DNA of 64,000 nucleotides, taken from an uncultured Candidatus Saccharibacteria bacterium. Lineage in GTDB: Bacteria; Patescibacteriota; Minisyncoccia; Phycocordibacterales; UBA5272. Under the pieces are notes generated by a model that made no database searches, was not told the DNA's origin, and was given only the letters and a program-made list of their open reading frames with translations. Position 1 is the first letter of the stretch. Each line of letters begins with the position of its first letter. This document shows, piece by piece, positions 1,681-58,425 of this stretch. The position numbers were made by a program, and so were the translations under genes. The stretch covers positions 545 to 64,544 of the forward strand of contig CAZJJX010000006.1 of NCBI GenBank assembly GCA_964546555.1, read 5' to 3'.

Positions 1681-1793
1681 ATTTTAATTCTAGCACTTCC
1701 GATTTGGTTTAAGTCAATTCTTTACTTAAGGTCGATTTTAAAAGTAAAGTGCTACATTGTGATAAAAAAGTGCTTAGATATTACCCGATATAT

Positions 1794-1822
1794 TTGACAT
1801 ACCACAATATACATTGTAGTAT
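1794..1822 (+). promoter_or_regulatory. sigma70-type promoter candidate for the 1852 ORF
   Basis: TTGACA (1794-1799), 17-nt spacer, TAGTAT (1817-1822). An AAGGA Shine-Dalgarno sits before ATG 1852. Confidence 0.5.
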
Positions 1823-1851
1823 GTACTTATCCTATCAACATAAGGAAAAAC

Positions 1852-2388
1852 ATGAAATATGATGTTCTTTTAGTTGCTGCTGCACTAGATGAGTTGTCAA
1901 AAGAGTCTAAGGTTGGATCAATGGATAACGCGCAGATTGTTGTTAATGCTTTCCATGATCTTGAACCACGAGAACTTATTGTTGCCGAAGTGACTCGTAC
2001 CAAAAAAGGTAGTTCTACTGAAGGTCAGACAAATCTTGGTAACGTGTCATTAAAACATGAAGATGAACGAGTCACCGATGTTCGTGGTGTAAAGTATGCA
2101 AGAGTTGGTAAGTGGAAGATCTGGCGTTCTGTAGATAGAAAAAGAAAAAGTGTTTCAAGGATTTGGTTTGTCCATTTTCTTTCACAAGGTGTTCACGATG
2201 GAGCAAGAGATCGTGAATTCTACGTTGAATATGATCAGAATCTTGTTCCAAAGGGTTTTGCGTATATGGGGGAGATACAGCAGATGTTTCGCTTTTTTCG
2301 ATTTACTTTCTTCAAGAAGAAAACTGTGGTCGTCTTTGGGGAGGTTTGCGACACACAAGATGAATTTCTTGTTACTTTTGGTTCATAA
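1852..2388 (+). CDS. hypothetical protein
   Basis: 178-aa ORF with its own promoter-like signal, an SD and a downstream terminator. Confidence 0.5.
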   Translation: MKYDVLLVAAALDELSKESKVGSMDNAQIVVNAFHDLEPRELIVAEVTRTKKGSSTEGQTNLGNVSLKHEDERVTDVRGVKYARVGKWKIWRSVDRKRKSVSRIWFVHFLSQGVHDGARDREFYVEYDQNLVPKGFAYMGEIQQMFRFFRFTFFKKKTVVVFGEVCDTQDEFLVTFGS

Positions 2389-2411
2389 GTTTAGATTTAA
2401 AAAACAATAAT

Positions 2412-2437
2412 AAAAAACTCGCTTCGGCGAGTTTTTT
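2412..2437 (+). terminator. rho-independent terminator
   Basis: AAAAAACTCGC-TTCG-GCGAGTTTTTT: a GC stem with a UUCG loop, flanked by an A-run and a T-run. Confidence 0.8.
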
Positions 2438-5023: not shown

Positions 5024-5202
5024 TTTTGCTGCCTCTAGTAAGCAAGTTCAGAACTTTGAATTGGTCGCAGGTAGAAAAAGAGATGAGGTTGTTTGATTCT
5101 TTTGTTGGAAGATAGCCAAATAAAAAGAGAGGATTTCTAGTTATAACATTTACCAATTCTTTCAAGAATTACAGGGTTGGTTGGAACTGGTATACTAAAG
5201 GT

Positions 5203-6201
5203 ATGGAAGGAAGTATCGAAAAGAAAAAACCAATGATTACTTTTAAAAATCAACCAAAACTTTCTGAGGATGAGGTTGATAAGAAACGTAATGAATTACG
5301 CGTAGCCCTTGTCTCCCATATTTCAAACTTTCTAGAGACTGATGAGTATTTTCAAGGGAAAGAAGTTATTGTCGAGTTTTCTGAGCAAGGAGTTTCATCG
5401 TTGGTGTGTTTTATTGAAACTGGTGATAAAAAATTTGTTCTAAAAATACCTTTGAATAGTACTGTTTTAGCTGGAGATGAAGCTCTCTTTCTGAAAACAT
5501 GGGAAGCATCTGGTGTTTCAGTCCCTCATGTTTTTAAAGAAGGCATGTTGGGGACTAGTTCATATCTTTTAATGCAATATATCGATGCACCAACTGTTCA
5601 GCAAAAATATAAAGATGGTAATGAAAACAAAGAGAACGGCTACTTTGAAGCAGGTAAAACTCTTCGAGTAATGCATAAACAAGAAGCGATAGGTTTCGGA
5701 AAAGTTATTAACGGAAGAGGTGAGTATGATTCTTTTGCAGAATGGTTGAATTCAGGTGATATGGAGAAAAGAGAGAAATACATACAAGAGCAACATCTCT
5801 TGGGTGAAGAACATGGATCAATTTCTCAAGCCAAAAATACTTTGATAAATTTTGCTGGGGGAAACTCTAAAAGTAGTTATTTACATTTTGATTACAGCAC
5901 GGGGCATTTGTTTGCAACCATACCATTAACTGTTTTCGATCCAGACCCGCTTTTTAATAATAGATATATAGATCTAGGCCGTACATTTGTAAACTACATA
6001 GCTCAAACAGAAGAATACCCAAAAAAACTTTTAGAAGGATATTGTGATGGAGAAGAAATAGATGAAAAAGCATTACATGCAGCAATTTTCATAAATATTG
6101 TTTATAAAATTCCTTATCAGCACCAAAAGGGAAGGATGCAAGTTATTCAGAATTTACAGAATTATTTGATACAAAATAAATATATATTAGAGTTGAAATA
6201 G
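5203..6201 (+). CDS. phosphotransferase-family kinase (APH/choline-kinase-like fold)
   Basis: FVLKIP (Lys), LMQYIDAP hinge, LHFDYSTGHLF and DPDPLFNNRYIDLG correspond to the HxD..N and DxD motifs of APH-type kinases. Confidence 0.65.
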   Translation: MEGSIEKKKPMITFKNQPKLSEDEVDKKRNELRVALVSHISNFLETDEYFQGKEVIVEFSEQGVSSLVCFIETGDKKFVLKIPLNSTVLAGDEALFLKTWEASGVSVPHVFKEGMLGTSSYLLMQYIDAPTVQQKYKDGNENKENGYFEAGKTLRVMHKQEAIGFGKVINGRGEYDSFAEWLNSGDMEKREKYIQEQHLLGEEHGSISQAKNTLINFAGGNSKSSYLHFDYSTGHLFATIPLTVFDPDPLFNNRYIDLGRTFVNYIAQTEEYPKKLLEGYCDGEEIDEKALHAAIFINIVYKIPYQHQKGRMQVIQNLQNYLIQNKYILELK

Positions 6202-7608: not shown

Positions 7609-7674
7609 GTATGTATTCTACGAACTAATAGCTAAAGGCTACCGCTTTCCAGTTAATCCTTATATACTAGAGAC

Positions 7675-8214
7675 ATGAAATCACTTCTAGAGAGTCTTCG
7701 TCTTATTGTGGCTCGGAAAGATAGTCGTGCTGTTGTTGTGGTTGCCGTAGTCATACTTTTTCTGCTTCTTCTTATGTATCAAAATGGAAAAGCAGGTCTT
7801 GAGGTGCTTACGTTTGAGTCGTTGTCATTTGATAAGAGAGCTGCGCTTGCTCTAAAGGTATTTTTTGATACTAAGAGTACATTTACCCCAGGAACACTTT
7901 TGCTTGCGATAGGTGGTATAGTGCTTAGTGCTATCAATCTTGCAATTGCTTATACGTATGTACGAATTCGTGGAGGTGCCATTATGAAGAGTGGATTATA
8001 TAGTGGCATCGGGCTACTACTTGCTATTTTTGGTGTTGGGTGTGCTGCGTGTGGAACTGCCCTCTTAGGTATTGTGCTTAGTTTTTTTGGGGCATCTGCA
8101 GTGCTTAGATTTCTCCCTTACGAAGGCCAGGAAATTGGGTACCTAGGGATTATTGTCCTATTGATTGCTACCTATACGCTTGCACAGAAGTTGCAAGCAC
8201 CAAATGTATGCTAA
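7675..8214 (+). CDS. integral membrane protein with an intramembrane CAAC motif, hypothetical
   Basis: 179 aa with several TM helices and GVGCAACGTALLG. Confidence 0.55.
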   Translation: MKSLLESLRLIVARKDSRAVVVVAVVILFLLLLMYQNGKAGLEVLTFESLSFDKRAALALKVFFDTKSTFTPGTLLLAIGGIVLSAINLAIAYTYVRIRGGAIMKSGLYSGIGLLLAIFGVGCAACGTALLGIVLSFFGASAVLRFLPYEGQEIGYLGIIVLLIATYTLAQKLQAPNVC

Positions 8215-10902: not shown

Positions 10903-10932
10903 GCCACAAAATTTGCTATACTTACTACTATT

Positions 10933-11991
10933 ATGTCACTTACTATTATTGTTGCAATTATCGGAACTATTATTGTCGCTCTCCTTGTTGTTATTTTGTT
11001 ACGACAAGGAACTGCATCAAAAAGTGAAAACGATGATCAGACATTTCTAATCTTGCAAGATCAGCTTGAGCGGCTAAGAACAACACTTGATGCGAAGTTC
11101 GATAGGTCGTCATCTGAGTTGCATCAGGTGCTTCATCGTCAGAGTACAGAAGTAAACCGCTTAATGAATGACATTACGCGTGATCTCACAGAAGTGCGCG
11201 AAGGGAACAAGCAAGTGTTTTCAATGACTGAGCAGTTACAGAACCTCCAAGACATCCTTAAGAACCCAAAGCAACGTGGAGTCCTTGGAGAATATTATCT
11301 AGAAACACTCCTTAAGAATGTTATGCCTCCGGGATCTTTTGAAATGCAGTACCGTTTTCCGGATGGCACAATTGTAGATGCGGCAGTCTTTGTGAAAGAT
11401 AAAATTATTCCTATTGATTCTAAGTTTTCACTTGAGAATTACAATCGTATTAGCGAAAGTGAAGATCGCACAGAAAAAGACCGCTATGAAAAATTGTTCC
11501 TTAACGACCTTAAGAATCGTATTGTTGAAACATCAAAATATATTCAGCCAGAACAAAATACAATGGAATTTGCATTCATGTTTATTCCGCACGAAGCTAT
11601 CTACTATGATCTTATTCTTAATAAGATTGGCACAGTTACAGATGATACTGAGAGTCTTATCCAACGTGCAGCGTCCAAGTATAAAGTAATTGTTGTTTCT
11701 CCGACATCATTCCTTGCGTACCTTCAGACTGTGCTCCAGGGGCTTAAGGCTATGCAGATTGAAGAGTCAGCAAAAGATATAGTCAAGCGCGTAGGTGAAC
11801 TCGGAAAACATCTTAAAAGTTATGAAGAGTATCATAATAAATTAGGTAACACCTTAAACACTGTTGTTAATCATTACAATAGTTCAAGTAAAGAGCTTAA
11901 AAAAGTAGATAAGGATGTATTTAGAATCACTGAGAATCAAGTGGGTATGGAGCCAATGCTACTAGATAAGCCCTCTGGGAGCGATGAGTAG
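10933..11991 (+). CDS. rmuC: DNA recombination protein RmuC
   Basis: N-terminal TM helix, long coiled coil, then GVLGEYYLETLL...PDGTIVDAAV...IPIDSKF, the RmuC nuclease-like core. Confidence 0.9.
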   Translation: MSLTIIVAIIGTIIVALLVVILLRQGTASKSENDDQTFLILQDQLERLRTTLDAKFDRSSSELHQVLHRQSTEVNRLMNDITRDLTEVREGNKQVFSMTEQLQNLQDILKNPKQRGVLGEYYLETLLKNVMPPGSFEMQYRFPDGTIVDAAVFVKDKIIPIDSKFSLENYNRISESEDRTEKDRYEKLFLNDLKNRIVETSKYIQPEQNTMEFAFMFIPHEAIYYDLILNKIGTVTDDTESLIQRAASKYKVIVVSPTSFLAYLQTVLQGLKAMQIEESAKDIVKRVGELGKHLKSYEEYHNKLGNTLNTVVNHYNSSSKELKKVDKDVFRITENQVGMEPMLLDKPSGSDE

Positions 11992-12618: not shown

Positions 12619-12647
12619 CTTGCATAGTTATTGGAATTAGTGTATAA
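12619..12647 (+). promoter_or_regulatory. sigma70-type promoter candidate for rplU
   Basis: TTGCAT, 17-nt spacer, TATAAT. The -10 ends 10 nt before ATG 12658, and there is no SD. Confidence 0.5.
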
Positions 12648-12657
12648 TTTCACAACT

Positions 12658-12975
12658 ATGTCATTCGCAGTTATTCAAACAGGTGGGAAACAATATAAAG
12701 TCGCTGTAGGCGATGAAATCGCAGTTGAGAAATTAGCTGGCGATCATAAGGTGGGAGACAAGGTTACCCTTGATACCGTTGTACTTACTGATGATGGTAA
12801 GAGTACTGTACTTGGCACTCCTTTTATTAAAGGCGCATCAGTTACAGCAACTGTACGCGAGATAGGACGTCTTGATAAAGTACTTGTTGTACGATATCGT
12901 CAAAAGTCACGTTATCACAAGAAGAATGGTCATCGTCAGCCGTATATGGGTCTTACTATTGATTCAATCAAGTAG
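12658..12975 (+). CDS. rplU: 50S ribosomal protein L21
   Basis: MSFAVIQTGGKQYKV..GD...EKL...VL..G...IG.P...A.V.A.V......KV.V.RY..K..Y.KK.GHRQ is the L21 signature. Confidence 0.9.
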   Translation: MSFAVIQTGGKQYKVAVGDEIAVEKLAGDHKVGDKVTLDTVVLTDDGKSTVLGTPFIKGASVTATVREIGRLDKVLVVRYRQKSRYHKKNGHRQPYMGLTIDSIK

Positions 12976-13071: not shown

Positions 13072-13698
13072 CTAGTTTCTATGATCAAGAGCTTGTTTGA
13101 ACGTATTTTTATCTACGTACTCAAGCTCAAGACCACTTGATAAACCTCGTGCTAAGTGAGTGAGTTGTACGGTATCTATCCCAACTATCTGTTTAATGGT
13201 TTTTTCTATGTACTCAGTTGTAGTGTCACCGTAGTCAGTTACAGGGAGTGCAAAAATAATTTCATTAAGTGTTTTGTTTGCAATGCCTGCATGGATATAA
13301 CTCGTAAGTTCTCGAATACGGATAAGTTCTGAAGGTTTTTCGGTAAGAGGCGGGACAAGACCTCCTAGAATAAAATAAATACCATTATATGAGCCAGTTT
13401 TTTCGATTGCATCTAGATCGAGCTCTTTTTCTACAATCATGAGTGTTGTATTTTCTCGGGAAGAAGACGCACAAATATCACATATCATGACATCTGGTTT
13501 TGCATACTTGTCGCCATAATATCTGAAGCATTTCTTACACTGTTTCCCTGTAAACTTAAGCTCGTCGAGGGCTTTAATAAGTTGCTCTTTATATGAAGAG
13601 TGTTCTCGTAATAAGAAATAAACAAAACGCTTGGCTTGTTTTGGGCCAATACCAGGAAAGCGCATAAGTAGTTCTGCAAGTCGGTCGGTTGGGTTCAT
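13072..13698 (-). CDS. recR: recombination protein RecR
   Basis: FPGIGPKQAKRFVYFLL (HhH), a C4 zinc finger CKKC...CDIC, and a Toprim region. Start taken at ATG 13698. Confidence 0.9.
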   Translation of the reverse strand: MNPTDRLAELLMRFPGIGPKQAKRFVYFLLREHSSYKEQLIKALDELKFTGKQCKKCFRYYGDKYAKPDVMICDICASSSRENTTLMIVEKELDLDAIEKTGSYNGIYFILGGLVPPLTEKPSELIRIRELTSYIHAGIANKTLNEIIFALPVTDYGDTTTEYIEKTIKQIVGIDTVQLTHLARGLSSGLELEYVDKNTFKQALDHRN

Positions 13699-13845
13699 GT
13701 ATTTTGTTAAGTATAACAAAATTAGCTGCTAGTTGTTAGACGTTAGGTTTTAGAAAATACATGCTAATAAAAATCTAGCAAAAAAGAGACATTTATGTTT
13801 TACAACTTGTATATTAAGCTAAAAGTTAACAGCTAAAGACTATCT

Positions 13846-15321
13846 CTAAAAATCATCAACTGGGACGTTAACATTAGGAAGTGAAAAGTCACCGAACTCA
13901 CTTTTCTCAATAGTGACGAACGATGTCTTCTTGTCATCGAAGTAAAGTTCAACCGAACCCGTTGGTCCGTTACGGTGCTTTTCGACCAGGATTTCTACAA
14001 TATTTTTTCGAGCAGAGGCTTCGTCGCCGTACTTGTCTTCGCGGTGGATGAACATAACAATATCCGCATCTTGTTCGATAGATCCAGAGTCACGAAGATC
14101 CGATAGTCGCGGCTTACCACCACGTGATTCTACGGCACGAGAAAGCTGCGAGAGGGCAATTACCGGAGCATTGAATTCCTTTGCAAGTCCTTTTAGTGAT
14201 CGAGAGATTTCGGTAACTTGGTTCACCATATTGTCGTAGACTTTTGATGTTCCCATAAGCTGGAGGTAGTCCACGATAATAAGACCAATTGGTCTATCAG
14301 AGTTGAGTCTTCGAAGTGTACTTCGCATGTTAAGAATTGTGTTTGCAGGTTTATCGTCTACAAAGATCGGTGCTTTCATAAGTTCATGCATACCACGCTG
14401 AAGGCGCTCGAATTCTTCATCAAGAGAGAGTTTTGCGGTACGAAGCTTCCAGCTATCAACCTGAGATTGTGCAGAAAGCATACGGTCAACGAGCTGCTCT
14501 TTACTCATTTCTAGTGAAAATATTGCAACAGGAATATTGTGTTTTACTGCAGCGTTACGAGCAAAATCTAGCGCAAGGGACGTCTTACCAACAGAAGGAC
14601 GTGCGGCTAAAATGATGAGGTCAGATGGTTGGAATCCAGAGAGTTTGTTATCAAGATCACGAAAGCCAGACGGTGTACCACGCATGTTTCCATCCCGTTC
14701 TGCCATCTTTTCGATACGTGCCCATGTTTCATCAATAAGTTCATTAAAACCAATAAGACGATCAGATGATCCTCCTTTCATAGTGATTTCATAGACACTT
14801 CGCTCTGCCTCTTCAAGTACTGATTCAAGAGAGTCGTCTTCATTGTAAGCAATTTCGCCGATATGAGTTGTTGCTTCGATTAGTTTGCGCAGGAGTTCTT
14901 TCTTGCGAACAATTTGTGCGTAGTATTTTGCATTTGCTGCAGAACCAACAAGACCAAGAAGCTCTGAGAGATATTGTGCACCACCGATTTGGTCAAATTG
15001 CTTACTTGCGCGAAGTGCAGCAGAGACAGTAAGGATATCAACTGGCTCTTTGTTGTTAACAAGCACTTCTATAGCTTCGAATATGATTTGGTGTTTTGCA
15101 GCGTAGAAACTTTGTGCAGATACAAGGTCAGCAATATCAAACAGTGCTTCAGAAGAGAGAAGAAGTGACCCAAGGAGCGCTTTTTCTGATTCTAGATCTT
15201 GAGGTGGAATGCGTGCTCCACGTAGTGGGTCTTGCCCTTCTTTATCTTGCGTATAATCGCTGTAGCTTCTTTTTTTGTATGGCCGCTTGCTTGGGGCGCT
15301 TAATTGGTTAAGAGGTAACAT
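13846..15321 (-). CDS. dnaB: replicative DNA helicase DnaB
   Basis: PPQDLESEKALLGSLL N-domain, Walker A ARPSVGKTSLAL, IIVDYLQLM, SQLSRAVE. Confidence 0.95.
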   Translation of the reverse strand: MLPLNQLSAPSKRPYKKRSYSDYTQDKEGQDPLRGARIPPQDLESEKALLGSLLLSSEALFDIADLVSAQSFYAAKHQIIFEAIEVLVNNKEPVDILTVSAALRASKQFDQIGGAQYLSELLGLVGSAANAKYYAQIVRKKELLRKLIEATTHIGEIAYNEDDSLESVLEEAERSVYEITMKGGSSDRLIGFNELIDETWARIEKMAERDGNMRGTPSGFRDLDNKLSGFQPSDLIILAARPSVGKTSLALDFARNAAVKHNIPVAIFSLEMSKEQLVDRMLSAQSQVDSWKLRTAKLSLDEEFERLQRGMHELMKAPIFVDDKPANTILNMRSTLRRLNSDRPIGLIIVDYLQLMGTSKVYDNMVNQVTEISRSLKGLAKEFNAPVIALSQLSRAVESRGGKPRLSDLRDSGSIEQDADIVMFIHREDKYGDEASARKNIVEILVEKHRNGPTGSVELYFDDKKTSFVTIEKSEFGDFSLPNVNVPVDDF

Positions 15322-15528
15322 GTCTACTAGTGTACTAAAAAGTTCGCATCTTGCACAAATTAAAATCTATTGTTTTTTGATAATAAATAGTGGATAGTGG
15401 GGACAACCAGGAAAGACAACAGGTATAGACCGCTTCTCTATCAGACAACAGATGAAACTGCATGTGTTCACATAGATATTTTGCAATTAAACCAAGAATG
15501 TATACCGTTCTCTGACAGTCTGATAGTA

Positions 15529-16923: not shown

Positions 16924-16980
16924 GGAGTGTGATGGTAATACCTTTATTCTAGCATATTTTCTGTGTATACTAACATCTAT

Positions 16981-18255
16981 ATGTCATCGATTTTTTCTTC
17001 CAACAATGGTGAACAAGGATCTGTTCATCTGCCAAAATATTTTACAAAGAGTTTTACTATTAAGAGTATTGCTGTAGGTGCTTTTATCTTTACTATTTTT
17101 GGGGTAGGTTTTCTTCTGGGTACAGCTATGAATAGTAGTGTTAAAGCTGACACTCAGATGAGTAGTGTGAGTCTAGATACGCCACTTTTCAAAGCAGTAA
17201 AGAGCAACCTTGATGGTAAGTTTGTTTTTTGGAAATCATCATCAACACTTCCGACCGCAAAGGAGTTTGAGTACGGAATGATACGTGGTTATGTTGAGAG
17301 TTACAAGGACCCATATACAGTATTTTTCCCACCAGTTGAGGCAAAGAGTTTTGCTCAGACAGTGAAGGGGTCGTTTGGTGGTGTTGGTATGACTGTTGGT
17401 ATGAAGGATGGCAACATTGTTGTTATTGCTCCACTTAAGGATTCTCCGGCGATGAAAGCAGGTGTTAAGGCGGGAGATATTGTTGTTGCGGTTGATGGTA
17501 AGAGTATGCTTGGTAAAAATTCAGAAGAAGCCGTCTCTCTTATTCGTGGTGAATTAGACACAACAGTAACACTTTCTGTGCTCCATGTTGACGGAAAAGC
17601 CCCAGTTGATATCAAGATTGTTCGTAAAGAAATAAAGATACCAACACTTGATACTGAAAAGAAAGATAATGTGTTTATTATCAAACTCTACAACTTCTCA
17701 GCAGAGTCACCGGATCTTTTCCGAAAGGCGCTCAATGAATTCCTTGCTACAAAGTACACAAGGCTTGTAATTGATCTTCGAGGTAACCCGGGAGGATATC
17801 TAAATGCGGCAGTAGAAATGTCGAGCTACTTCTTGAAAGAAGGGCAAGTGGTTGTAAGTGAACGACAAGGAAAAGATGAGGCAATTGTAAACCACAGAAG
17901 TACAGGTATCAAAGGATTACCTGCAAATATAAAAGTAGTTATCCTTGTTGATGGTGGGTCAGCGTCAGCTTCAGAAATTGTCGCAGGAGCGCTTAAGGAT
18001 CATGGTATCGCAAAGATTGTTGGTGTAAAGTCATTTGGAAAGGGTTCAGTACAAGAGCTTGTGAATCTCGACGACGGCTCATCACTTAAGGTGACCATTG
18101 CAAAGTGGTATACACCAAACGGTGTTAATATCTCAGAGCACGGCATTAAGCCAGATGTGGAAGTTGCTGTTGCTACATCAACACCAAAAGGTTTCAAGGG
18201 TGTCTATGATGCTCAAATGATCAAGGCGGTAGAAGTGGTGAAGAAGATGCAGTAA
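16981..18255 (+). CDS. S41 family C-terminal processing peptidase (PDZ-containing)
   Basis: PDZ region (GVGM...PAMKAGVKAGDIVVAVDG), GNPGGYL, SASASEIVAGALKD. ATG 16981 is preferred over the GTG at 16963. Confidence 0.9.
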   Translation: MSSIFSSNNGEQGSVHLPKYFTKSFTIKSIAVGAFIFTIFGVGFLLGTAMNSSVKADTQMSSVSLDTPLFKAVKSNLDGKFVFWKSSSTLPTAKEFEYGMIRGYVESYKDPYTVFFPPVEAKSFAQTVKGSFGGVGMTVGMKDGNIVVIAPLKDSPAMKAGVKAGDIVVAVDGKSMLGKNSEEAVSLIRGELDTTVTLSVLHVDGKAPVDIKIVRKEIKIPTLDTEKKDNVFIIKLYNFSAESPDLFRKALNEFLATKYTRLVIDLRGNPGGYLNAAVEMSSYFLKEGQVVVSERQGKDEAIVNHRSTGIKGLPANIKVVILVDGGSASASEIVAGALKDHGIAKIVGVKSFGKGSVQELVNLDDGSSLKVTIAKWYTPNGVNISEHGIKPDVEVAVATSTPKGFKGVYDAQMIKAVEVVKKMQ

Positions 18256-18344: not shown

Positions 18345-18399
18345 TAGTCTGAGTAGTCAGTAGTTGTCTGGGAAGTCTGCGACATGGTAGTATAGAAAT

Positions 18400-18840
18400 A
18401 TGAAAGTAATTCTCCTAAAAGATACAGCAAAACTCGGTAAGCGTGGCGAGGTAAAAGAAGTGGCAGATGGTTACGCTATCAACGTGCTCATTAAGAAGGG
18501 TGACGCCCTCCAGGCGACACCTTCAGAGCTTGCAAAATGGAAAGCAAAAGAAGAATCTAAACTTCATAAAAAAGAAGTTGCAACTAATACTTTTGTGCAG
18601 CTTCTCGATACAATAAAAGAATCAAAGGTAGTTATTGCGGGTAAAAAATCAGATGCTAAAGGTCAGCTTTTTGCACAGGTTAAGGAAGTTGATATTGTTG
18701 ATGCTATTTTTGCGGCAACAAAGTTTTCTCTTGATCCAAAACAGATTCATATCACTACTTTGATTAAGTCGGTTGGTAAACATACGGTTACTCTCGTACA
18801 AGGGGAAAGAAAAGCATCTATTGCCATAGAAGTGCTCTAG
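18400..18840 (+). CDS. rplI: 50S ribosomal protein L9
   Basis: MKVILLKD...[19 protein letters not shown] is the L9 N-domain signature. Confidence 0.9.
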
Positions 18841-18952
18841 GTATTAGAGTGGTTTTGTAAGAATGTTTTATCTGTAATTATTGTTACTATAAAGATACTG
18901 TGATAGTGTGAAGAAAGTTCTTTAGGGTGTACTTATACACAAGGAGGCGATC

Positions 18953-19701: not shown

Positions 19702-19730
19702 AGCGTATACTAAATAATGATTAAACTATA

Positions 19731-20340: not shown

Positions 20341-20341
20341 A

Positions 20342-20799: not shown

Positions 20800-20959
20800 C
20801 GTCTAGTTCCTTTATGTGTTGTGATTGAATGAGCTTTAAATATTGTACTGTATATTATATAATTTGTCAATATTTACAATACGTGCAAATAGTGTTTTAA
20901 AATTCTAACCACACCACAGGTAATCTAAGCAAGTTTCTGATATACTGCCTCCCATAGTT

Positions 20960-41435: not shown

Positions 41436-41527
41436 TCATCACCTGAGCTATGTGCTCGGGTTTTTTCTGTCTACAGATATAAAAACTTGCTTTTTTTTAT
41501 AAATATTGTATAATATATAATATATCT

Positions 41528-42400
41528 ATGCTAAAAAAAGCACCTACAAAACAATCTAAAGAACGTACTTTTTCTCAAAGAGGTCTACCTAAGCGTGCTT
41601 TTAAGACCGCCTCAAGTTTACCACCTAAAGACACTTCATGGGGGAATGTTGCAACGTGGTATGATGCACATCTAGAAAAAGGCAAAGACACCTATCATGA
41701 AAAAGTTGTCTACCCACATCTTCTTAGAATTATTGGGGAAGCGAAAGATAAGCGTGTTCTTGATCTTGCGTGTGGGCAGGGGCAGTTCTCGCGAATGCTC
41801 TCAGAAAAGGGAAGTCTTGTAACGGGTATTGATCTTGGTGAAGAGCTTATCACAATAGCCAAAAAGCAGAACGCTTTATTACCTGCGAAAAAAAATCCTA
41901 TTACGTATGTTCATGGTAGCGCCGATACCTTGTCGATGTTTTCTGATGTGTCATTTGATATTGTTGTATGTGTGCTTGCACTTCAGAATATCGAGAATCT
42001 TTCAAAAACAATTAAAGAAGCACATCGTGTTCTAAAAGATAAGGGGACGTTTATCTTCGTGCTTAACCATCCTGCTTTTCGTAATCCTCGTCAAACACAC
42101 TGGGGATACGATGAGTCAACTGACACACAGTATAGACGTGTTGATGAATATATGAGTGAGTCACATACTAGGATTGACATGACTCCTGGAAGTAGTAAAG
42201 AGAAGAAGTTTACGGTGTCATTTCACCGGCCGCTTCAGGTATATATTAAGGCACTCGCAAAAGCAGGTTTTGTATTAGCACGACTTGAAGAATGGGAGAG
42301 TCATAAAGTAAGTGAACAAGGACCTCGTCAAAAAGCAGAGAACAAGTCTCGTAAAGAAATTCCACTGTTTATGTGTATTGAGGCGAAGAAAGGGAATTAG
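41528..42400 (+). CDS. class I SAM-dependent methyltransferase
   Basis: VLDLACGQGQFS (motif I), DIVVCVLALQNI, GTFIFVLNHP. Confidence 0.85.
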   Translation: MLKKAPTKQSKERTFSQRGLPKRAFKTASSLPPKDTSWGNVATWYDAHLEKGKDTYHEKVVYPHLLRIIGEAKDKRVLDLACGQGQFSRMLSEKGSLVTGIDLGEELITIAKKQNALLPAKKNPITYVHGSADTLSMFSDVSFDIVVCVLALQNIENLSKTIKEAHRVLKDKGTFIFVLNHPAFRNPRQTHWGYDESTDTQYRRVDEYMSESHTRIDMTPGSSKEKKFTVSFHRPLQVYIKALAKAGFVLARLEEWESHKVSEQGPRQKAENKSRKEIPLFMCIEAKKGN

Positions 42401-43789: not shown

Positions 43790-43807
43790 CTAGAACATTT
43801 GTTCTAG
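43790..43807. promoter_or_regulatory. LexA operator (Cheo-type SOS box)
   Basis: CTAGAACATTTGTTCTAG is a perfect 8+2+8 palindrome containing GAAC-N4-GTTC. It ends 12 nt before the lexA ATG and overlaps TAGTAT. Confidence 0.8.
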
Positions 43808-43819
43808 TATGCTAAAAGT

Positions 43820-44383
43820 ATGAAAGACAAAGAAGTAGTATCAGAATTTTTTATTGAACATAACCGTATGCCAACATACGAAGAGATGAAGTCACTCTTT
43901 GGAGTAGCGTCCAAAAACACCGTCGCCTATAGAGTCAACAAGCTCCTCGAAGAAGGATTCCTTCTGAAAGATGGCACCAAGCTCATGCTCGCAGAGACAG
44001 GATCGGTAATGCGGCTGAGCACAGTGCAAGCAGGATTTCCAACCGCAGCAGATGAGGATGTTGAGACAGAACTACTCTCCCTTGATGACTTCCTGATAGA
44101 ACGAAAACAGAGTACATATATGCTAGAAGTCCAAGGGGAGTCGATGATAGATGCAGGGATATTAGAAGGAGATCTGGTTTTGGTAGAAAGAGGAAGGACG
44201 CCGCGAAGGGGAGATATCGTACTAGCCCTCGTCGAGAATGAATATACACTTAAATATCTCGAAACAGAAAATGGTAAACCAGTTCTTGTTCCCGCAAACA
44301 AAGCATTCAAGAAAATTTATCCGAATCCAAATAAGTTACGCATTGAGGCGGTATTAAAAGCAGTAGTCCGAAAGTACAGGTAA
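43820..44383 (+). CDS. lexA: LexA repressor (S24 peptidase)
   Basis: Winged-helix N-domain, Ala-Gly cleavage site (VQAGFP), GESM (Ser) and TLKY (Lys). Confidence 0.9.
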   Translation: MKDKEVVSEFFIEHNRMPTYEEMKSLFGVASKNTVAYRVNKLLEEGFLLKDGTKLMLAETGSVMRLSTVQAGFPTAADEDVETELLSLDDFLIERKQSTYMLEVQGESMIDAGILEGDLVLVERGRTPRRGDIVLALVENEYTLKYLETENGKPVLVPANKAFKKIYPNPNKLRIEAVLKAVVRKYR

Positions 44384-45603: not shown

Positions 45604-45716
45604 TACCTTTGTGTTTCTTGGTCGCGTTGAAAATTAGAATTTATTGCTCTTGTCTTATTCAAAACTTTTTATCGACAATGGAAGAATGTGTTACTTTGTG
45701 CTAGAATCATACAATT

Positions 45717-46853
45717 ATGTCACTATCTATCGGAATTGTTGGGTTGCCTAATGTCGGGAAATCGACACTTTTTAATGCACTTACAAAAAAAAGTGTGCCA
45801 GCTGAGAACTATCCATTTTGTACCATTGATCCGTCAGTGGGAATTGTGGCAGTGCCTGATGAGCGCCTTGAGGCGCTCTCAAAGATGAGTGGATCTAAGA
45901 AGATATTGCCTGCTGCGGTTGAGTTCGTTGATATCGCAGGACTCGTAAAAGGGGCAGCGTCTGGCGAAGGACTTGGAAATGCATTCCTCTCTCATATTCG
46001 TGAGACTGATGCAATTGCAGAAGTGGTGCGTATCTATGAGAATACTGACCTCATCCATGTAGAAGGAACCGTTGACCCACTTCGTGATATTGAGATCATC
46101 AATATGGAGCTCATTTTAGCTGACATGCAGACTGTTGAGAAGCGTCTAGGTACTATCGAGCGAGATGTGAAGCGTGGTGATAAAGACGCGATCAAACTAA
46201 AGGAAATCATGGGGAAGATAAAAGTAACCCTTGAAGATGAGAAGCTTGCTAATACTATAGCGCTTACCGATGATGAACAGCGTGTGGTACGTGAACTACA
46301 CTTGATAACTATGAAGCCATTTCTGTATGTGCTTAACAAACAGCACGGCGGGAAGAACCTTGATGAGTTACAGGATGGGCGGTTCGAGAAGTTGCTTGCG
46401 TATTTCAAGAATAATAATTATCACTATGTGGTAGTCGATGCAAAGATAGAGGATGAGTTAAAAGATTTTGAGGGTGCCGAGAAAGAAGATATGCGAAGCA
46501 TGCTTCTTTCGAGTACGTCCAGCGATGAACCTTTGGGTGATGTTGGAGTTGTGGGAGATGGAATCAATAATCTTATCAAGGCAGGGTATGATTTGCTTTC
46601 ACTTGAAAGTTACCTCACTACTGGAGAAATGGAGACTCGTGCGTGGACTATTAAGCGTGGGTCTACTGCGCCACGTGCGGCTGCAGCTATCCATACGGAT
46701 TTTGAACAGAAGTTCATTAGAGCGGAAGTGGTGGCGTACAAAGAGCTCATAGCGTGTGGAAGCTTCGCAGAAGCAAAAGCAAAAGGTAAGGTGCGCACAG
46801 AGGGGAAAGAGTACATTGTACAGGACGGGGATGTGATTGAGTTTAAGATTTAA
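45717..46853 (+). CDS. ychF: redox-regulated ATPase YchF (Obg-like)
   Basis: IGIVGLPNVGKSTLFNALT, FVDIAGLVKGAS.GEGLGN.FL, and a TGS-like C-terminus AWTI..G..AP.AA..IH.DF...FIRAEV. Confidence 0.95.
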   Translation: MSLSIGIVGLPNVGKSTLFNALTKKSVPAENYPFCTIDPSVGIVAVPDERLEALSKMSGSKKILPAAVEFVDIAGLVKGAASGEGLGNAFLSHIRETDAIAEVVRIYENTDLIHVEGTVDPLRDIEIINMELILADMQTVEKRLGTIERDVKRGDKDAIKLKEIMGKIKVTLEDEKLANTIALTDDEQRVVRELHLITMKPFLYVLNKQHGGKNLDELQDGRFEKLLAYFKNNNYHYVVVDAKIEDELKDFEGAEKEDMRSMLLSSTSSDEPLGDVGVVGDGINNLIKAGYDLLSLESYLTTGEMETRAWTIKRGSTAPRAAAAIHTDFEQKFIRAEVVAYKELIACGSFAEAKAKGKVRTEGKEYIVQDGDVIEFKI

Positions 46854-47017: not shown

Positions 47018-47194
47018 TTAGTGTGGAGTATACAAGATGATAAACATCATGAACCCAAAGAACGGTGATATGAGTGCGTAGATAAGTTTCTCCCACCATA
47101 CAGCTGACTTATCTGTGATAAGCTCTTTGATGGGTCGATAGACACCGTAACCACAAACTACAATTGCCAAAAGGATTGTCAGTTCACGAAGCAT
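47018..47194 (-). CDS. 58-aa two-helix membrane protein (not in ORF track)
   Basis: MLRELTILLAIVVCGYGVYRPIKELITDKSAVWWEKLIYALISPFFGFMMFIILYTPH. A TAAGGAGA SD sits 5 nt upstream (AAACA spacer), and it has its own terminator. Confidence 0.55.
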   Translation of the reverse strand: MLRELTILLAIVVCGYGVYRPIKELITDKSAVWWEKLIYALISPFFGFMMFIILYTPH

Positions 47195-47258
47195 GTTTTC
47201 TCCTTATTTTTCAATGTTTTTACTCGACTTCCAGTGATAATTCTACATGTATATTATT

Positions 47259-49413: not shown

Positions 49414-49474
49414 GCAGGTGGATTGTCTACACGATTCTTTCTTATAATCCAAAAAAACTTGCTATACTGTATTT

Positions 49475-50425
49475 ATGATGAAAGTTTCTAGTAGTCTACC
49501 AGATCTTGTTGTTTTGCGAGGTGGTGCTGATAATTTTAAGCGTTCACTGCAGGATGGGGCAGATGTTTTGGCTTCTCTTACAAAGATAGGCTATGAGCCA
49601 GTTGATGTTCTTATTGATAAAGAAGGGCAGTGGACGGTGCATGGATTTCCAACAGATCCACATAAGGTCTATACGCGTGCACACACCGTCGTCGACACAA
49701 CGCGTATGACGGGGCAGCCGTATCAAGCGATTGCAAAAAGGATGAACATACCACTTATTTTTTCTAAAGATGAAGTTATGACTCTTGATAGAGAAGATCT
49801 TTACAGACTCCTTAGACAACAACAAATACAGTGTCCAGATACACTTGTTGTGCGCGCTAATCAACCACTTAAAGACAGTCTCTTTAGAGAGGTCTGGACT
49901 AAGTTCCATACACCGATCCTCGTAAGACCGCTTCATCCGCACAGGTCTGTTTCTTCAAAAATTATTAAGATATTTCATGACCTTGAGGCAACCGTTCGCA
50001 AGTATCACGAAGAAGGGGTTGATATCCATATACTTACGTATAAGAAAGCTCATACGACATCAATGGCTATACTTCCCCAATTCCGTAAACAAAAAATATA
50101 TGTACCAATGTGGGTGGATACATTCCCAGAAGAAGGTTCGCTTCCAGGTAAAGACTCTCGTATGCAGCCACATCTGCAAGCGCCGGAATTTAGACGTGAG
50201 AATATGCATGCTATTGCAAAAAAAGTGTACCAAGCACTTGGGCTAACAACACCTGCATGTATTGATCTTGTGCATCATAATAATAATTATATTGTTGTTA
50301 ATGTTGACCTGCATCCATCCCTTAGTAGAGATGGGAGATTTATGCAGTCACTTAAGACAACAGGGGTTGATGCTGGGCACTATGTGCATGAGTGCATCAA
50401 GAGGTCATATGACGTCACAGGATAG
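49475..50425 (+). CDS. divergent D-alanine--D-alanine ligase-like ATP-grasp protein
   Basis: The overall architecture follows Ddl (VVLRGG....SL.DG..V...L...GY.PV.VLIDKEGQW; PILVRP; CIDLV...YIVVNVD). GSSVG is HRSVSS, and E.N..PG is NVDLHPS. Confidence 0.5.
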   Translation: MMKVSSSLPDLVVLRGGADNFKRSLQDGADVLASLTKIGYEPVDVLIDKEGQWTVHGFPTDPHKVYTRAHTVVDTTRMTGQPYQAIAKRMNIPLIFSKDEVMTLDREDLYRLLRQQQIQCPDTLVVRANQPLKDSLFREVWTKFHTPILVRPLHPHRSVSSKIIKIFHDLEATVRKYHEEGVDIHILTYKKAHTTSMAILPQFRKQKIYVPMWVDTFPEEGSLPGKDSRMQPHLQAPEFRRENMHAIAKKVYQALGLTTPACIDLVHHNNNYIVVNVDLHPSLSRDGRFMQSLKTTGVDAGHYVHECIKRSYDVTG

Positions 50426-53032: not shown

Positions 53033-54277
53033 TTAGCGAGTGTCTTTCATTGGAAGGACGTGCGAGATACTCCACACTATAGCACATCCTAGAATAATAA
53101 ACATGAGTCCAGGTCGATCACTTAAAAATGGCGTAACAATCACGCCAACTGTCCCTACAATGAGCATTCCGATTCCTTGGAGATTAATAAATAGTGCAGT
53201 AAGAGATGGATCTTCTGGGCCTATTTTTTTAAAATAGTAACTAAACGACATTGTTTCAACAAGCGATGCTCCTATTCGCGATATTATAAGGAGTAGTGCC
53301 CAGACCCATAACGTTGTTGTATTGATTACAGCAAAGAGAAGCGATGTCACACTAAGGATGAGCATGCCTATGATGAGCATTTCTTTTTCACCAAATTTTT
53401 TATCAGCAAGATATCCTAATTCGTACGGGAGAAGTACAAGTGGAATAAGTGCAATAGGGAGGATGATAGTCATGTAGCTTGTAAGCGGGATACCAATTGA
53501 TGTCAGGTAAAGCGGAGAGTAAATAATCATTGTTGCATAAAAAACATTTACTGCAAGTTCTCCAACCAGCGCTGCGCGTAAGTTTTTATTTTTGAGTGCC
53601 TGGCGTGCTGCACTTAGAAGATCAATTTGGTGATATGCTGGCTCACGAATATGGTGGAGATACTTATGAAGGAAAAATAGATAGGGTATGAGCATAGAGG
53701 CTGCTACAGCGTAGAGTGCACCAAATGAATAATGCTTAAGTATGGTGCCTCCGATAAATGGCGCAATGAGTACTGCAAGGTTGAAGATTGCCAAGAAAAG
53801 TCCACGGACACTTCCTACCTTTGAGTGGATCGTAAAATTTTCTATGAAGATGTTTAGAGAAATATTAAGAAGCACTTGAAGTACAAAATGTACAATGAAA
53901 AAGATTGGAAGGAGATATGGGATTTTCGTTAAACCAAAAGCAGTAATTACTATTATTTCTGCGATTGCCACAGCATATGTGAAGCCATAGGTGTGGAATT
54001 TTTTTACTGAGCGAGCAATATTGACTGAAGCAAAAAGTGCAAGAATACTACCAATCATGTAGATCGCGCTAACGATGGAGGAGTTGAAATACTTATGCAG
54101 ATAAGATGACGATGCGTAGACGGGGATGGCATAATGAAGCGCAAAAAGAAACGTCATGACATACGTGACGACAAGGAGGCGGTGTTTTAGAATTGCGTGC
54201 ATACTATCATGTAAGTATAGCAATGAAATAGCTAAGTAAAGAACGTTTTGTGTTGATAGGGTAAGAGTTTTTAACAA
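53033..54277 (-). CDS. MFS transporter (start uncertain: TTG 54277 or ATG 54202)
   Basis: About 12 TM helices with the typical 6+6 organisation. Confidence 0.8.
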   Translation of the reverse strand: MLKTLTLSTQNVLYLAISLLYLHDSMHAILKHRLLVVTYVMTFLFALHYAIPVYASSSYLHKYFNSSIVSAIYMIGSILALFASVNIARSVKKFHTYGFTYAVAIAEIIVITAFGLTKIPYLLPIFFIVHFVLQVLLNISLNIFIENFTIHSKVGSVRGLFLAIFNLAVLIAPFIGGTILKHYSFGALYAVAASMLIPYLFFLHKYLHHIREPAYHQIDLLSAARQALKNKNLRAALVGELAVNVFYATMIIYSPLYLTSIGIPLTSYMTIILPIALIPLVLLPYELGYLADKKFGEKEMLIIGMLILSVTSLLFAVINTTTLWVWALLLIISRIGASLVETMSFSYYFKKIGPEDPSLTALFINLQGIGMLIVGTVGVIVTPFLSDRPGLMFIILGCAIVWSISHVLPMKDTR

Positions 54278-56239: not shown

Positions 56240-56266
56240 ATATTTGTTAAAAGTTAAATTATTTTG

Positions 56267-57982
56267 TTAATGGATACTATTTTGTAAAATTTCTAATAAT
56301 GGTTTGTAATATGTTTTTGGCCAAACATTATCAACATACCTATACCAGCTTTCAACAAGCATAAAACGAGAAGCATTGCTGTAACTGTACAAAGGAAGAG
56401 GCGATGTTACCTTGTCATTGTTAATATAGATAAGTGATGGTGCGAATAAAAATATTCCCGGAACCTCCTCTTTAAATTCCTCCTTTGCAGCACTGTAGGC
56501 GTTTAGACGTTCATTTTCATCGATACTTGTTCTTAGAATTTCCAGATTTTCATCAAGGGTTTTGCTTACGTAATTAGAAATATTAAGCCCCGGGTAAGCA
56601 CGCTGTGACGAGTGCCAAAATGCATAAAGATCAGAAGGGGATTCTGTGATTGCACCAAAAAGAAGTGCTTGGAAATCCCTATCCTTGATAATATTTTGAT
56701 TAAGGTCAGAGACATCATAGATAACAACGTTTGTCTTAACTCCGATTGCTTCCCAGTACCCCTTAATCATTTCTGAAACTTTTTTCATTTCATCAGTATT
56801 AATAGTGACAAGTGTTATTTCAAGAGTTGAAGAGGCAGTTTTTAACGCTTTTGACTTGATAAGTAGCTCTTTTGCTTGGACTGGGTCATAGAGATTTTCA
56901 GTATCTTCGCTATCAAATGGGTAAGGCGTGTTGATGACTTTACCGTAATGAAGTAAGACAGTATCTACTATTGCTTGCTTATTGATGGCCATCTGTAGAG
57001 CTACTCGTACATTTTTGTTAGCAAGAGGAGTAAGTTTATTTGGATTGAAAAAGACGGCAAAAGTTCGAGGGAGTAGCGAAGTTTTAATCGATGATGTTGC
57101 TACTGAGATGGTACTAATTTTCTCAGGAGACACTCCGTGAATTCTTGTTATATCATGATCTTCGAAAGCTTTCAGTAGATATTTTTCACTCTGATATGTG
57201 TAGATAGTGATAGTTTCAATGTAAGGTCGGCCAAGCGTATAGTTTTTGTGTGACTGAAGTTTAAATACTGTCGGGATGCCTGATTGCGTTATTATGTCCT
57301 CTATTTTATATGGCCCACTACCAACGGCGTGAATATTAAAATCACTAAGACTCATCTGGTCTTCGGTTAAGTTTTTCCAAACATGTTTTGGGAGTATTCC
57401 AAGTGAGAGTGTTTCCATAAAAAGAGGAAATGGTTTCTTAAGAACAAAGGTGAGTTGACTATCTGAATTCTTTTCAATAGTTACACCCTCCCATTCGATT
57501 CGGTGCGGGCTTTTTACAACAGGACTTTGAACAAGGCTCACCGTATAAATAACATCATCGGTGGTAATCTTTACACCATCATGGAAACGTGCCTTGTCCT
57601 TAAGGGTAACGGTGTAACGTAGACCGTCATCACTTCTGTCGATTTGTCGTGCCATATCAAGCACAATGGTCCCATCAGAATTCTTTTTTGTAAGACCAGC
57701 AAAAACAAGTGACGTCATGTCTTCATCAGGATCAGATGTTGCAAGAACTGGGTTTATAAAGCGAGGCGTACCAATAATACCTTCTCTTAGTTCTCCTCCG
57801 TATGTTGGAACAGTAATAAGAAAACGCTTGTTAAACACAACAAATGACGCAAAAAAGAAACAAACACCAAGAGCCACTAAAAGCCAGAAAACAATAACTT
57901 TTTCTGGAGAAAGTGACTTATAAATAGTAGATAACTTGTTGCTGAAACTAGCAAATTTAGTTCTATATTGAGATGTGTCCAT
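56267..57982 (-). CDS. membrane-anchored family-5 (peptide/nickel type) solute-binding protein
   Basis: N-terminal TM helix and SBP_bac_5-like YTVTLKDKARFHDGVKITTDDVIYT. ATG 57982 avoids the overlap with secG that the track start at 58057 would create. Confidence 0.7.
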   Translation of the reverse strand: MDTSQYRTKFASFSNKLSTIYKSLSPEKVIVFWLLVALGVCFFFASFVVFNKRFLITVPTYGGELREGIIGTPRFINPVLATSDPDEDMTSLVFAGLTKKNSDGTIVLDMARQIDRSDDGLRYTVTLKDKARFHDGVKITTDDVIYTVSLVQSPVVKSPHRIEWEGVTIEKNSDSQLTFVLKKPFPLFMETLSLGILPKHVWKNLTEDQMSLSDFNIHAVGSGPYKIEDIITQSGIPTVFKLQSHKNYTLGRPYIETITIYTYQSEKYLLKAFEDHDITRIHGVSPEKISTISVATSSIKTSLLPRTFAVFFNPNKLTPLANKNVRVALQMAINKQAIVDTVLLHYGKVINTPYPFDSEDTENLYDPVQAKELLIKSKALKTASSTLEITLVTINTDEMKKVSEMIKGYWEAIGVKTNVVIYDVSDLNQNIIKDRDFQALLFGAITESPSDLYAFWHSSQRAYPGLNISNYVSKTLDENLEILRTSIDENERLNAYSAAKEEFKEEVPGIFLFAPSLIYINNDKVTSPLPLYSYSNASRFMLVESWYRYVDNVWPKTYYKPLLEILQNSIH

Positions 57983-58043
57983 GGGGTTTTCACTTAGGAC
58001 TATCGTTTTGTGGTAGGTGCTACGAGCAAAAATGCTTAAATAT

Positions 58044-58271
58044 TTAGCGACCAGCAATTACTGGTACAAAGACAGACAAGACAAAAGCAATACCTATAAC
58101 AATGGTAAGGGTGTGAAGTGTTTTTTCAGCACCTCGCTTTTGAAAAGCTGCTCCAGATCCCCCGTCCGCGCCAAAAGCACCAGAAGCGTCTGTGTTTGTT
58201 CGTTGAACGAGTACAAGCACTATTAGGAGAATCGCTAGTAAAACCTGCACAATAGATAGCAATTGAAACAT
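58044..58271 (-). CDS. secG: preprotein translocase subunit SecG
   Basis: LLIVLVLVQR.....SGAFG........F..RG.EK.L...T. ATG 58271 sits 7 nt after a TATACT hexamer. Confidence 0.8.
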   Translation of the reverse strand: MFQLLSIVQVLLAILLIVLVLVQRTNTDASGAFGADGGSGAAFQKRGAEKTLHTLTIVIGIAFVLSVFVPVIAGR

Positions 58272-58425
58272 AAGTACTAGTATAACATAAAGAGAAGCAA
58301 TCTGCAAAATATAAATTCCAAAAAATAGGGAGTATTTTTTTGTTTAAAAGCAAGTAAGTTGATACTAATTTTGCTTGAAAAAGGTTTAAAAGTGAATAAA
58401 ACAAAGTTATTTTGAAGAGAACGCA

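Follow-up and report, generated by a model that had tools for sequence, protein, structure and literature searches.

What marks the start of a gene where few genes carry a Shine-Dalgarno sequence is the question raised by a 64-kb stretch of contig CAZJJX010000006.1 (the window; ~39% GC, standard bacterial code), in which one of four hexamers, TATACT, TAGAAT, TAGTAT or TATAAT, repeatedly precedes the ATG by 6 nucleotides (nt). The MreB protein encoded in the window shares 85-94% identity with proteins labelled Candidatus Pacebacteria/Paceibacterota, and the nearest genomes in the species-level collection are Nomurabacteria-like Parcubacteria of the candidate phyla radiation (CPR, Patescibacteria). 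We conclude that the hexamers are very probably the -10 elements of housekeeping sigma70-type promoters, at which transcription would start at or next to the AUG to give leaderless or near-leaderless mRNAs. This conclusion is built on the observed positions of the motifs, their promoter geometry, their statistics, their recurrence across the clade and the support for the start codons, from which we infer the mRNA 5' ends and the ribosomal pathway.

The gene set of the window (67-68 genes) was obtained with a simple home-made codon-usage caller that takes the first ATG as the start, and the gap was defined as the number of nucleotides between the end of the -10 hexamer and the start codon. The initial annotation had listed at least eight genes with a hexamer at a gap of exactly 6, five of them with a TGn extension; all eight were found at the positions it gave, and exactly five carry TGn in the sequence (Table 1). 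Its GIY-YIG, rplI, helicase and mreB names were upheld by family searches. The photolyase gene, with TACACT at gap 6, is a ninth case beyond that list. Across 67 gene starts, the four hexamers occur eight times at gap 6, twice at gap 7, six times at gap 9, three times at gap 10 and twice at gap 11, against an expectation per offset of 0.51 in the same upstream regions at gaps of 14 or more (Poisson P = 7.5e-8 for the eight at gap 6). When the region from -30 to -1 was shuffled, 0.26 hexamers were found per offset and a count of 8 was never reached at any offset in 2000 shuffles (maximum 5), and control ATGs (n=2263) have ~0.09 per offset. For the wider interval of gaps 5-11, 22 of the 67 genes possess one of the four hexamers, compared with 1.8 expected. 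When the 24 nt upstream of first genes were searched with a Gibbs sampler, the motif recovered was nTATA[A/C], whose mode corresponds to gap 6, rather than a Shine-Dalgarno motif. For the gap-6 genes, 92-179 nt of intergenic DNA lie upstream, and the promoters are therefore not forced against the ATG by shortage of space.

Chance occurrence in AT-rich intergenic DNA would be the simplest alternative. Intergenic DNA in the window is ~69% A+T, the pattern TAnnnT occurs ~2950 times, and the methyltransferase site at 41528 sits within an (AT)n-like run; however, the shuffles and the offset controls refute this explanation, and the AT-rich Bacillus anthracis plasmid pXO1 (50 kb, 33% GC), with a similar number of hexamers (207 versus 214 in the window), shows no peak and none at gap 6 when analyzed with the same pipeline. 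In pXO1, 51% of genes carry a Shine-Dalgarno sequence. A 50-kb stretch of Escherichia coli, also run through the pipeline, gave no gap-6 peak. The related possibility, that start codons were mis-assigned, is contradicted by the N-termini of family profiles, by upstream in-frame stops and by independent public gene calls. Every listed ATG is the first start codon following an in-frame stop. Profiles align from residue 1-5 for bL9, bL27, YchF, GIY-YIG, SecG, bL21, RlmB and GreA, with first aligned residue versus profile position of 1/1 for YchF and GIY-YIG, 3/2 for SecG, 3/1 for bL21 and 5/3 for RlmB; bL9 is matched by TIGR00158 over residues 1-144 (profile 1-144), and the Pfam GIY-YIG profile aligns residues 1-74 to profile positions 1-76, placing the start at the domain edge. 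Public annotations contain 9 of 10 proteins with these exact starts, the kinase-like protein of 5203-6201 is present in a public collection with an identical start, and MreB homologs are nearly all 349 aa. Extended -10 boxes are followed at gap 6 by ATG in 68 cases, by GTG in 4 and by TTG in 0. We therefore give hardly any credence to chance or to wrongly placed starts.

To describe the hexamers as promoter elements, a -10-anchored profile was assembled from 446 TAnnnT sites whose gap to a called start is 5-10 nt, drawn from the window and from 80 species-level Parcubacteria loci (L001-L080; 1.32 Mb in total, ~20 kb each). TG is enriched at -15/-14 (G 0.43, T 0.43), and T 0.52, T 0.53 and G 0.32 at -23 to -21 from the hexamer start correspond to a -35 element with a spacer of 17 base pairs (bp). 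Where the ATG lies 8-11 nt away, the seventh base after the hexamer is A in 36-58% (pooled 49%), relative to a background of ~33%. Transcription start sites centred 7 bp after the -10, together with a pyrimidine-purine-pyrimidine (Y-R-Y) start element, have been described (PMC12641261). Most sites would thus be extended -10 promoters (TGnTAnnnT) with a weak -35 TTG 17 bp upstream, and RNA polymerase would start at the seventh base after the -10, with preference for a purine preceded by a pyrimidine. At gap 6, this places +1 at the A of the ATG, and the T-A-T of T ATG would itself form the consensus Y-R-Y element; at seven of the eight listed sites, a T or C stands immediately before the ATG. 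The resulting mRNAs would start with 5'-AUG and, having no room for a Shine-Dalgarno sequence, would depend for translation on the leaderless route, the direct binding of a ribosome with initiator tRNA to the 5'-terminal AUG. Recognition of a 5'-AUG by the 70S ribosome or by a 30S-IF2-fMet-tRNA complex is established in E. coli and mycobacteria.

By this scheme, ~12 of ~56 transcription-unit-first genes, with gaps of 5-8 and including many core genes (rplI, rpmA, mreB, dnaB, secG, helicase and photolyase), would be leaderless or nearly so. A second group of ~11 genes, equal in size to the gap-6 group and with gaps of 9-13, would have leaders of 2-6 nt without a Shine-Dalgarno sequence and would not be truly leaderless, and approximately six accessory genes would have a leader of 25-40 nt with a canonical Shine-Dalgarno sequence. 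Longer leaders without a Shine-Dalgarno sequence are also predicted for greA (gap 16), cysS (gap 22), dnaE (~36) and mraZ (gap 44). The absence of a Shine-Dalgarno sequence claimed in the initial annotation holds at the eight listed genes and throughout the group with gaps of 5-13. Its further list of genes with spacings of 5-10 nt stands for rpmA (gap 5), secG (gap 7) and rlmB, ychF, lexA and rplU (gap 9), but not for yqeY, for which no match was found among the open reading frames (ORFs) tested; the ORF at 44567 encodes a fragment of a Y-family polymerase and lacks a TAnnnT 5-10 nt upstream.

The same pattern could be produced if TAnnnT were not a promoter but an A/U-rich non-Shine-Dalgarno element, bound by the ribosome or S1 on a leadered mRNA, as in GeneMarkS-2 group B. 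Some non-Shine-Dalgarno signal must exist, because Shine-Dalgarno sequences are near-absent in most of the relatives, the 16S 3' end of a related locus lacks CCTCC (see below), and about half of Parcubacteria are reported to be without the anti-Shine-Dalgarno (anti-SD) (Tsurumaki et al. 2022, PMC9297842). Loss of bS21 and a shortened bS1 are reported for Parcubacteria ribosomes in the same study. Moreover, the enrichment of T at -1 and of A at -2/-3 extends to operon-internal genes: T precedes the start codon in 67% of the window's first genes and, in the relatives, in 53% of first and 45% of operon-internal genes, compared with 31% of in-frame internal ATGs. Since operon-internal genes show it too, the T at -1 is not solely an effect of the transcription start, and it may be a translation-context signal. 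The hexamer itself behaves otherwise. The TG at -15/-14 and the TTG 17 bp upstream are promoter features at the DNA level, and TGnTAnnnT at gap 6 is present before 6.5-8.9% of first or divergent genes versus 1.7% of genes lying no more than 25 nt behind a gene on the same strand; this 4-5-fold rarity before operon-internal genes fits a promoter and does not fit a ribosome-binding site, which should precede all genes. A -10-type motif is also found 33-46 nt upstream of the Shine-Dalgarno-led genes, and from one ortholog to another the gap varies within 6-10 nt. A translation signal is thus a highly unlikely reading of the hexamers.

Recurrence across the clade was assessed independently of gene calls. 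In the 80 relatives, 242 TGnTA[TG]A[AC]T sites are followed by an ATG and an ORF of at least 80 codons; 34 of these have gap 6, 16 gap 7, 8 gap 8, 11 gap 9 and 8 gap 10, with zero at gaps 2-5 and ~1 per offset beyond gap 12. A hard edge at 6 nt is expected if the transcription start must not cut off the start codon. At least one case occurs in 66 of the 80 loci, and the richest three, L002-L004, belong to the four closest relatives. We do not claim gap 9 as a genuine second mode: it is clear in the window (6-7 genes) and a small bump in the relatives (11 versus 8 at gaps 8 and 10). Among mreB orthologs that come first in their transcription unit, those of at least 13 species are preceded by an extended -10, with a gap of 6 in L002, L003, L004, L031, L037, L042, L071 and L073 and of 9 in L001, L009, L010, L045 and L048. 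Synteny-based footprinting was of limited use, much of the gene order being common to L001 only, and orthologs were compared for ~15 genes. The L001 orthologs of rplI (TGTATAAT, gap 8 versus 6 in the window), rlmB (TGCTATACT, gap 10 versus 9), the RelA/SpoT-domain gene at 20960 (TGCTATACT, gap 10 versus 13) and the Cas4-like gene at 26633 (TGTATACT, gap 8 versus 10) illustrate that orthologs retain a -10 box 6-10 nt from the ATG, while the box sequence and the exact gap drift. One locus, L078, is labelled Crocinitomicaceae (Bacteroidota), yet its MreB is 61% identical to the query and its bL27 start context is Parcubacteria-like; it may be a mis-binned contig.

The shape of this distribution also bears on the possibility that promoters at the ATG are real but secondary, most mRNA being leadered through upstream promoters or readthrough and the leaderless form being a minor isoform. 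Several gap-6 genes do lie on the same strand 92-179 nt behind another gene, and some copies of the motif are found inside upstream coding regions before operon-internal genes. However, the sharp pile-up at 6 nt, with none at 2-5 nt, implies selection on the relation between transcription start and AUG itself; the leaders that readthrough would make contain no Shine-Dalgarno sequence; and divergent genes, for which readthrough is impossible, show the same peak (18/216 at gap 6). We regard a largely leadered transcriptome at these genes as unlikely. The proposal of the initial annotation, that transcription from these promoters would begin at or next to the AUG, is thus favoured by the promoter geometry, the edge at gap 6, the depletion before operon-internal genes, the bias toward ATG and the controls, with the 5' ends deduced from these features.

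Several observations weigh against leaderless initiation from these hexamers. Three of the eight listed gap-6 sites lack TGn (7675, 23057 and 41528), and at two of these the exact -10 is ambiguous because of a second, overlapping hexamer: before the helicase gene at 23057 a TAGAAT directly adjoins the ATG, and before the methyltransferase gene at 41528 a second TATAAT overlaps the first at gap 13. The helicase gene of L001, the closest relative, keeps cgTATACTTA with the ATG 20 nt downstream, and a leaderless start is hence not a fixed trait of every gene. At ~0.1 bit per position, the -35 signal is weak, as is expected of extended -10 promoters, and some operon-internal genes (the 1.7% above) carry the motif too. 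The gene set comes from our home-made caller with its first-ATG rule; the annotation-free test sidesteps the caller yet itself demands an ATG and a long ORF. Finally, at least one conserved promoter-like sequence is better read as coding sequence: a gap-8 promoter before the PBP2 gene (31760) was dropped as evidence because its conserved sequence TGTGCTATAGT lies within an overlapping small hydrophobic ORF (31573-31797, plus strand) and shows codon-like changes. Situated between mreC and the PBP2 gene, with 38 nt of overlap at the PBP2 start, this ORF encodes 74 aa if read from a TTG or ~51 aa if read from the ATG at 31642, and it may be an MreD-like remnant.

Shine-Dalgarno-led initiation is nevertheless present in the window, with spacers of 5-7 nt. 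GGAG or GAGG at a spacer of 4-10 nt occurs 10 times versus 0.9 expected, in 6 genes of a 62-gene set (~10%), with a peak at spacers of 5-6, where the enrichment is ~10-fold. The four closest relatives are similar (11 versus 1.3 expected), and the other 76 related loci are near background (56 observed, 40 expected). Our working set of Shine-Dalgarno-led genes comprises the six with a full GGAGG or AAGGAG, starting at 233, 18953, 22962 (minus), 34267, 39194 (minus) and 47194 (minus), the last being a small ORF added by hand. The four Shine-Dalgarno sites quoted in the initial annotation, AAGGAG before 39194 and 47194 and GGAGG before 34267 and 22962, are all real. None of the six genes, which encode hypothetical, membrane or lipoprotein products, has a significant family match. 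The nine operon-internal genes in the window have neither a Shine-Dalgarno sequence (0/9) nor a promoter signal, and they are probably initiated by coupling or re-initiation. The earlier picture of two coexisting modes is therefore right in that leaderless-type and Shine-Dalgarno genes are both present, but incomplete, since at least three contexts can be distinguished.

Judging from its stop codons, the Shine-Dalgarno-led class may have a separate history. Long ORFs in the window stop at TAA or TAG, and TGA is a rare stop, found in 7 of 68 genes (1408, 3463, 5021-5023, 19343-19345, 34975-34977, 38670 and 48067-48069): three of the six Shine-Dalgarno-led genes, the GIY-YIG gene, an integrase fragment, a short ORF and an ECF sigma factor. 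The difference in TGA usage between Shine-Dalgarno-led genes and the rest (Fisher P = 0.012), and the concentration of TGA in accessory genes, hint that the class may be foreign or recently acquired. Recoding of TGA was dismissed, and code 11 was retained: although no long ORF stops at TGA, reading TGA as sense gave no longer real genes.

A search of the 64-kb window for a 16S gene found none, and a single related locus, L009, from a Paceibacteria metagenome-assembled genome (MAG), holds a 16S 3' end. Positions 18580-18650 of L009 read GTCGTAACAAGGCACGGGTAGCGGAAGCTGTTCGTGGATCAATTCAATTG, with no CCTCC after GGATCA, and the 3' end (GGATCAATTCAATTG) agrees with the reported loss of the anti-SD in Parcubacteria. 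In the sublineage of the window the anti-SD is probably intact, judging from the persistence there of a real, minor Shine-Dalgarno class.

Table 1. Promoter-type hexamers and Shine-Dalgarno sites before genes of the window (hexamers in capitals; gap, nt from hexamer end to start codon; spacer, nt from Shine-Dalgarno motif to start codon).
Site	Strand	Motif	Hexamer position	Gap or spacer	Gene	Remarks
1678..1695	minus	tgcTAGAAT-taaaat-ATG	1687-1692	gap 6	GIY-YIG domain protein, 1408-1680	
5188..5205	plus	tggTATACT-aaaggt-ATG	5191-5196	gap 6	kinase-like (APH/fructosamine kinase family), 5203-6201	
7663..7677	plus	ttaTATACT-agagac-ATG	7663-7668	gap 6	hypothetical 179-aa protein, 7675-8214	no TGn
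18385..18402	plus	tggTAGTAT-agaaat-ATG	18388-18393	gap 6	rplI (bL9), 18400-18840	
23045..23059	plus	tcgTATACT-tagaat-ATG	23045-23050	gap 6	UvrD/PcrA-like helicase, 23057-26260	no TGn
29792..29809	plus	tgaTAGAAT-agagca-ATG	29795-29800	gap 6	mreB, 29807-30856	
39294..39308	plus	TACACT		gap 6	photolyase, 39306-40754	profile, residues 2-468 vs 3-453
41516..41530	plus	ataTATAAT-atatct-ATG	41516-41521	gap 6	class I methyltransferase, 41528-42400	no TGn
49460..49477	plus	tgcTATACT-gtattt-ATG	49463-49468	gap 6	D-Ala-D-Ala-ligase-like (Ddl-like) ATP-grasp protein, 49475-50425	
19699..19712	minus	TAGTAT		gap 5	rpmA (bL27), 19426-19701	profile, residues 1-73 vs 1-73
15319..15334	minus	TACACT		gap 7	dnaB, 13846-15321	
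58269..58287	minus	TGtTATACT		gap 7	secG, 58044-58271	profile, residues 3-69 vs 2-68
12643..12660	plus	TATAAT		gap 9	rplU (bL21)	predicted 2-3 nt leader
16966..16983	plus	TATACT		gap 9	C-terminal processing peptidase	
28309..28329	plus	TGcTATAAT		gap 9	rlmB	
43805..43822	plus	TAGTAT		gap 9	lexA-like repressor	
45699..45719	plus	TGcTAGAAT		gap 9	ychF, 45717-46853	profile, residues 1-377 vs 1-365
10914..10935	plus	TGcTATACT		gap 10	RmuC-like protein	divergent gene start, 10897 (minus), only 35 nt away
26617..26635	plus	TATACT		gap 10	Cas4/PD-(D/E)xK-like protein, ATG 26633	
13696..13718	minus	TGtTATACT		gap 11	recR	
54200..54222	minus	TGcTATACT		gap 11	hypothetical 389-aa protein	
20938..20962	plus	TGaTATACT		gap 13	RelA/SpoT-domain protein, ATG 20960	
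	minus	TGcTAGAAT	16946-16951	gap 22	cysS	back-to-back with peptidase promoter
18941..18955	plus	AAGGAGG		spacer 5	hypothetical, 18953-19345	best -10 candidate ~43 nt upstream
22960..22972	minus	GGAGG		spacer 5	hypothetical membrane protein, 22405-22962	
34257..34269	plus	GGAGG		spacer 5	hypothetical, 34267-34977	
39192..39206	minus	AAGGAG		spacer 6	putative lipoprotein, 38670-39194	
47192..47205	minus	AAGGAG		spacer 5	58-aa membrane peptide, 47018-47194	TGTAGAAT ~45 nt upstream

Some control regions in the window are extremely compact. The divergent pairs at 10898-10932 and 16924-16980 leave merely 35 and 57 nt between genes, with both promoters back-to-back, and the minus-strand cysS TGcTAGAAT and the plus-strand peptidase TATACT are 14 nt apart. 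Upstream of mraZ (ATG 35168), which has a predicted leader of ~37 nt and no Shine-Dalgarno sequence, GTGGG direct repeats lie at 35112, 35132 and 35142 (region 35112-35146), with a GGGGAG variant at ~35124 and a spacing of ~10 nt. A TATAAT (35118-35123) is overlapped by the repeats, and L001, L002 and L005 have kept the repeat-rich region; the repeats look like a candidate MraZ autoregulatory operator ahead of mraZ-rsmH. An Rfam search of the window found one tRNA only and no known leader RNAs. An integrase-core (rve) fragment of 170 aa (3463-3975, minus) is followed by ~860 nt without a convincing ORF, and this region (3463-4837) is probably a decayed insertion sequence; further ORF-poor stretches are 2389-3462, 50426-51509 and 61552-62385.

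Leaderless mRNAs are known in E. coli, for example lambda cI from PRM and Tn1721 tetR, in which initiation on the 5'-terminal AUG is 70S-dependent, and the leaderless mechanism is said to require that the AUG be 5'-terminal. The genes described here resemble them in the predicted start at the A of the AUG and in the absence of a Shine-Dalgarno sequence, but what are rare exceptions in E. coli form here a major class that includes ribosomal protein, cell-shape and replication genes. The leaderless starts here are nearly all AUG, unlike those of mycobacteria, which reportedly use GUG as well. The ychF gene, with its extended -10 at gap 9, encodes a conserved ATPase that, according to work cited in PMC12641178, modulates the translation of leaderless mRNAs in E. 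coli.

The closest parallel in layout is group C of GeneMarkS-2, in which a Pribnow-type box is located 6-8 nt before the starts of first genes, a predicted 25-50% of transcription units are leaderless, and leadered genes coexist with them (PMC6028130). Group C has been reported mostly from high-GC Actinobacteria (90%) and from Deinococcus-Thermus (97%), with few cases in other groups, and leaderless transcriptomes have been mapped experimentally in Mycobacterium (M. tuberculosis, M. smegmatis), Corynebacterium, Streptomyces and Deinococcus (D. deserti) (PMC6028130). The window and its relatives likewise have a TAnnnT box before first genes with a 6-nt mode. They differ in lineage (Parcubacteria/CPR), in GC content (39%), in having mostly extended -10 (TGn) promoters, and in the remaining genes, which are of the Shine-Dalgarno type in group C and mostly without a Shine-Dalgarno sequence here (~10% in the sublineage, approximately background in the other relatives). 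With the Bacteroidetes (group B) they share low Shine-Dalgarno use and an A/U-rich start context; in that group, however, the motif precedes all genes, including operon-internal ones, on leadered mRNAs (PMC6028130), whereas here it is promoter-like and depleted at internal genes. The study of Tsurumaki et al. 2022 (PMC9297842) concerns the same clade, and Shine-Dalgarno sequences at background level in 76 related loci agree with it; a replacement for Shine-Dalgarno pairing is not described there, and the sublineage of the window keeps a minor Shine-Dalgarno class. Leaderless architecture is thus already known in bacteria, and what appears to be new is the lineage, a low-GC, genome-reduced CPR class in which Shine-Dalgarno sequences are near-absent outside a small accessory class. 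A full-text literature search, with subscription journals outside its coverage, found no paper on leaderless mRNAs in CPR/Patescibacteria.

Gene starts in CPR MAGs are often called with models oriented to Shine-Dalgarno sequences, and a -10 box 6 nt before the ATG would provide an independent start signal that flags possibly wrong calls. Compact promoter/start cassettes, for example TGnTATACT-N6-ATG, could serve in new Patescibacteria genetic systems. For the biology of the group, leaderless initiation would offer an answer to how mRNAs are recognized if, as reported, Parcubacteria ribosomes have lost the anti-SD, bS21 and S1 domains, and a link may plausibly exist between the leaderless layout and this reduced ribosome, in which the anti-SD and bS21 are often missing and bS1 is short. 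Abundant leaderless expression would also be extended from high-GC Actinobacteria and Deinococcus to a low-GC, reduced radiation, which bears on whether it is ancestral or repeatedly re-evolved. More tentatively, and with somewhat less than even confidence, we suggest that the main recognizable mode of initiation throughout the class Paceibacteria/Parcubacteria may be a leaderless or near-leaderless one driven by extended -10 promoters, having replaced Shine-Dalgarno pairing as the anti-SD, bS21 and bS1 domains decayed, and that the Nomurabacteria-like sublineage of the window may be intermediate, with ~10% Shine-Dalgarno usage in accessory, possibly acquired genes. If this is true, a very large uncultured bacterial radiation would be a natural system for Shine-Dalgarno-independent translation.

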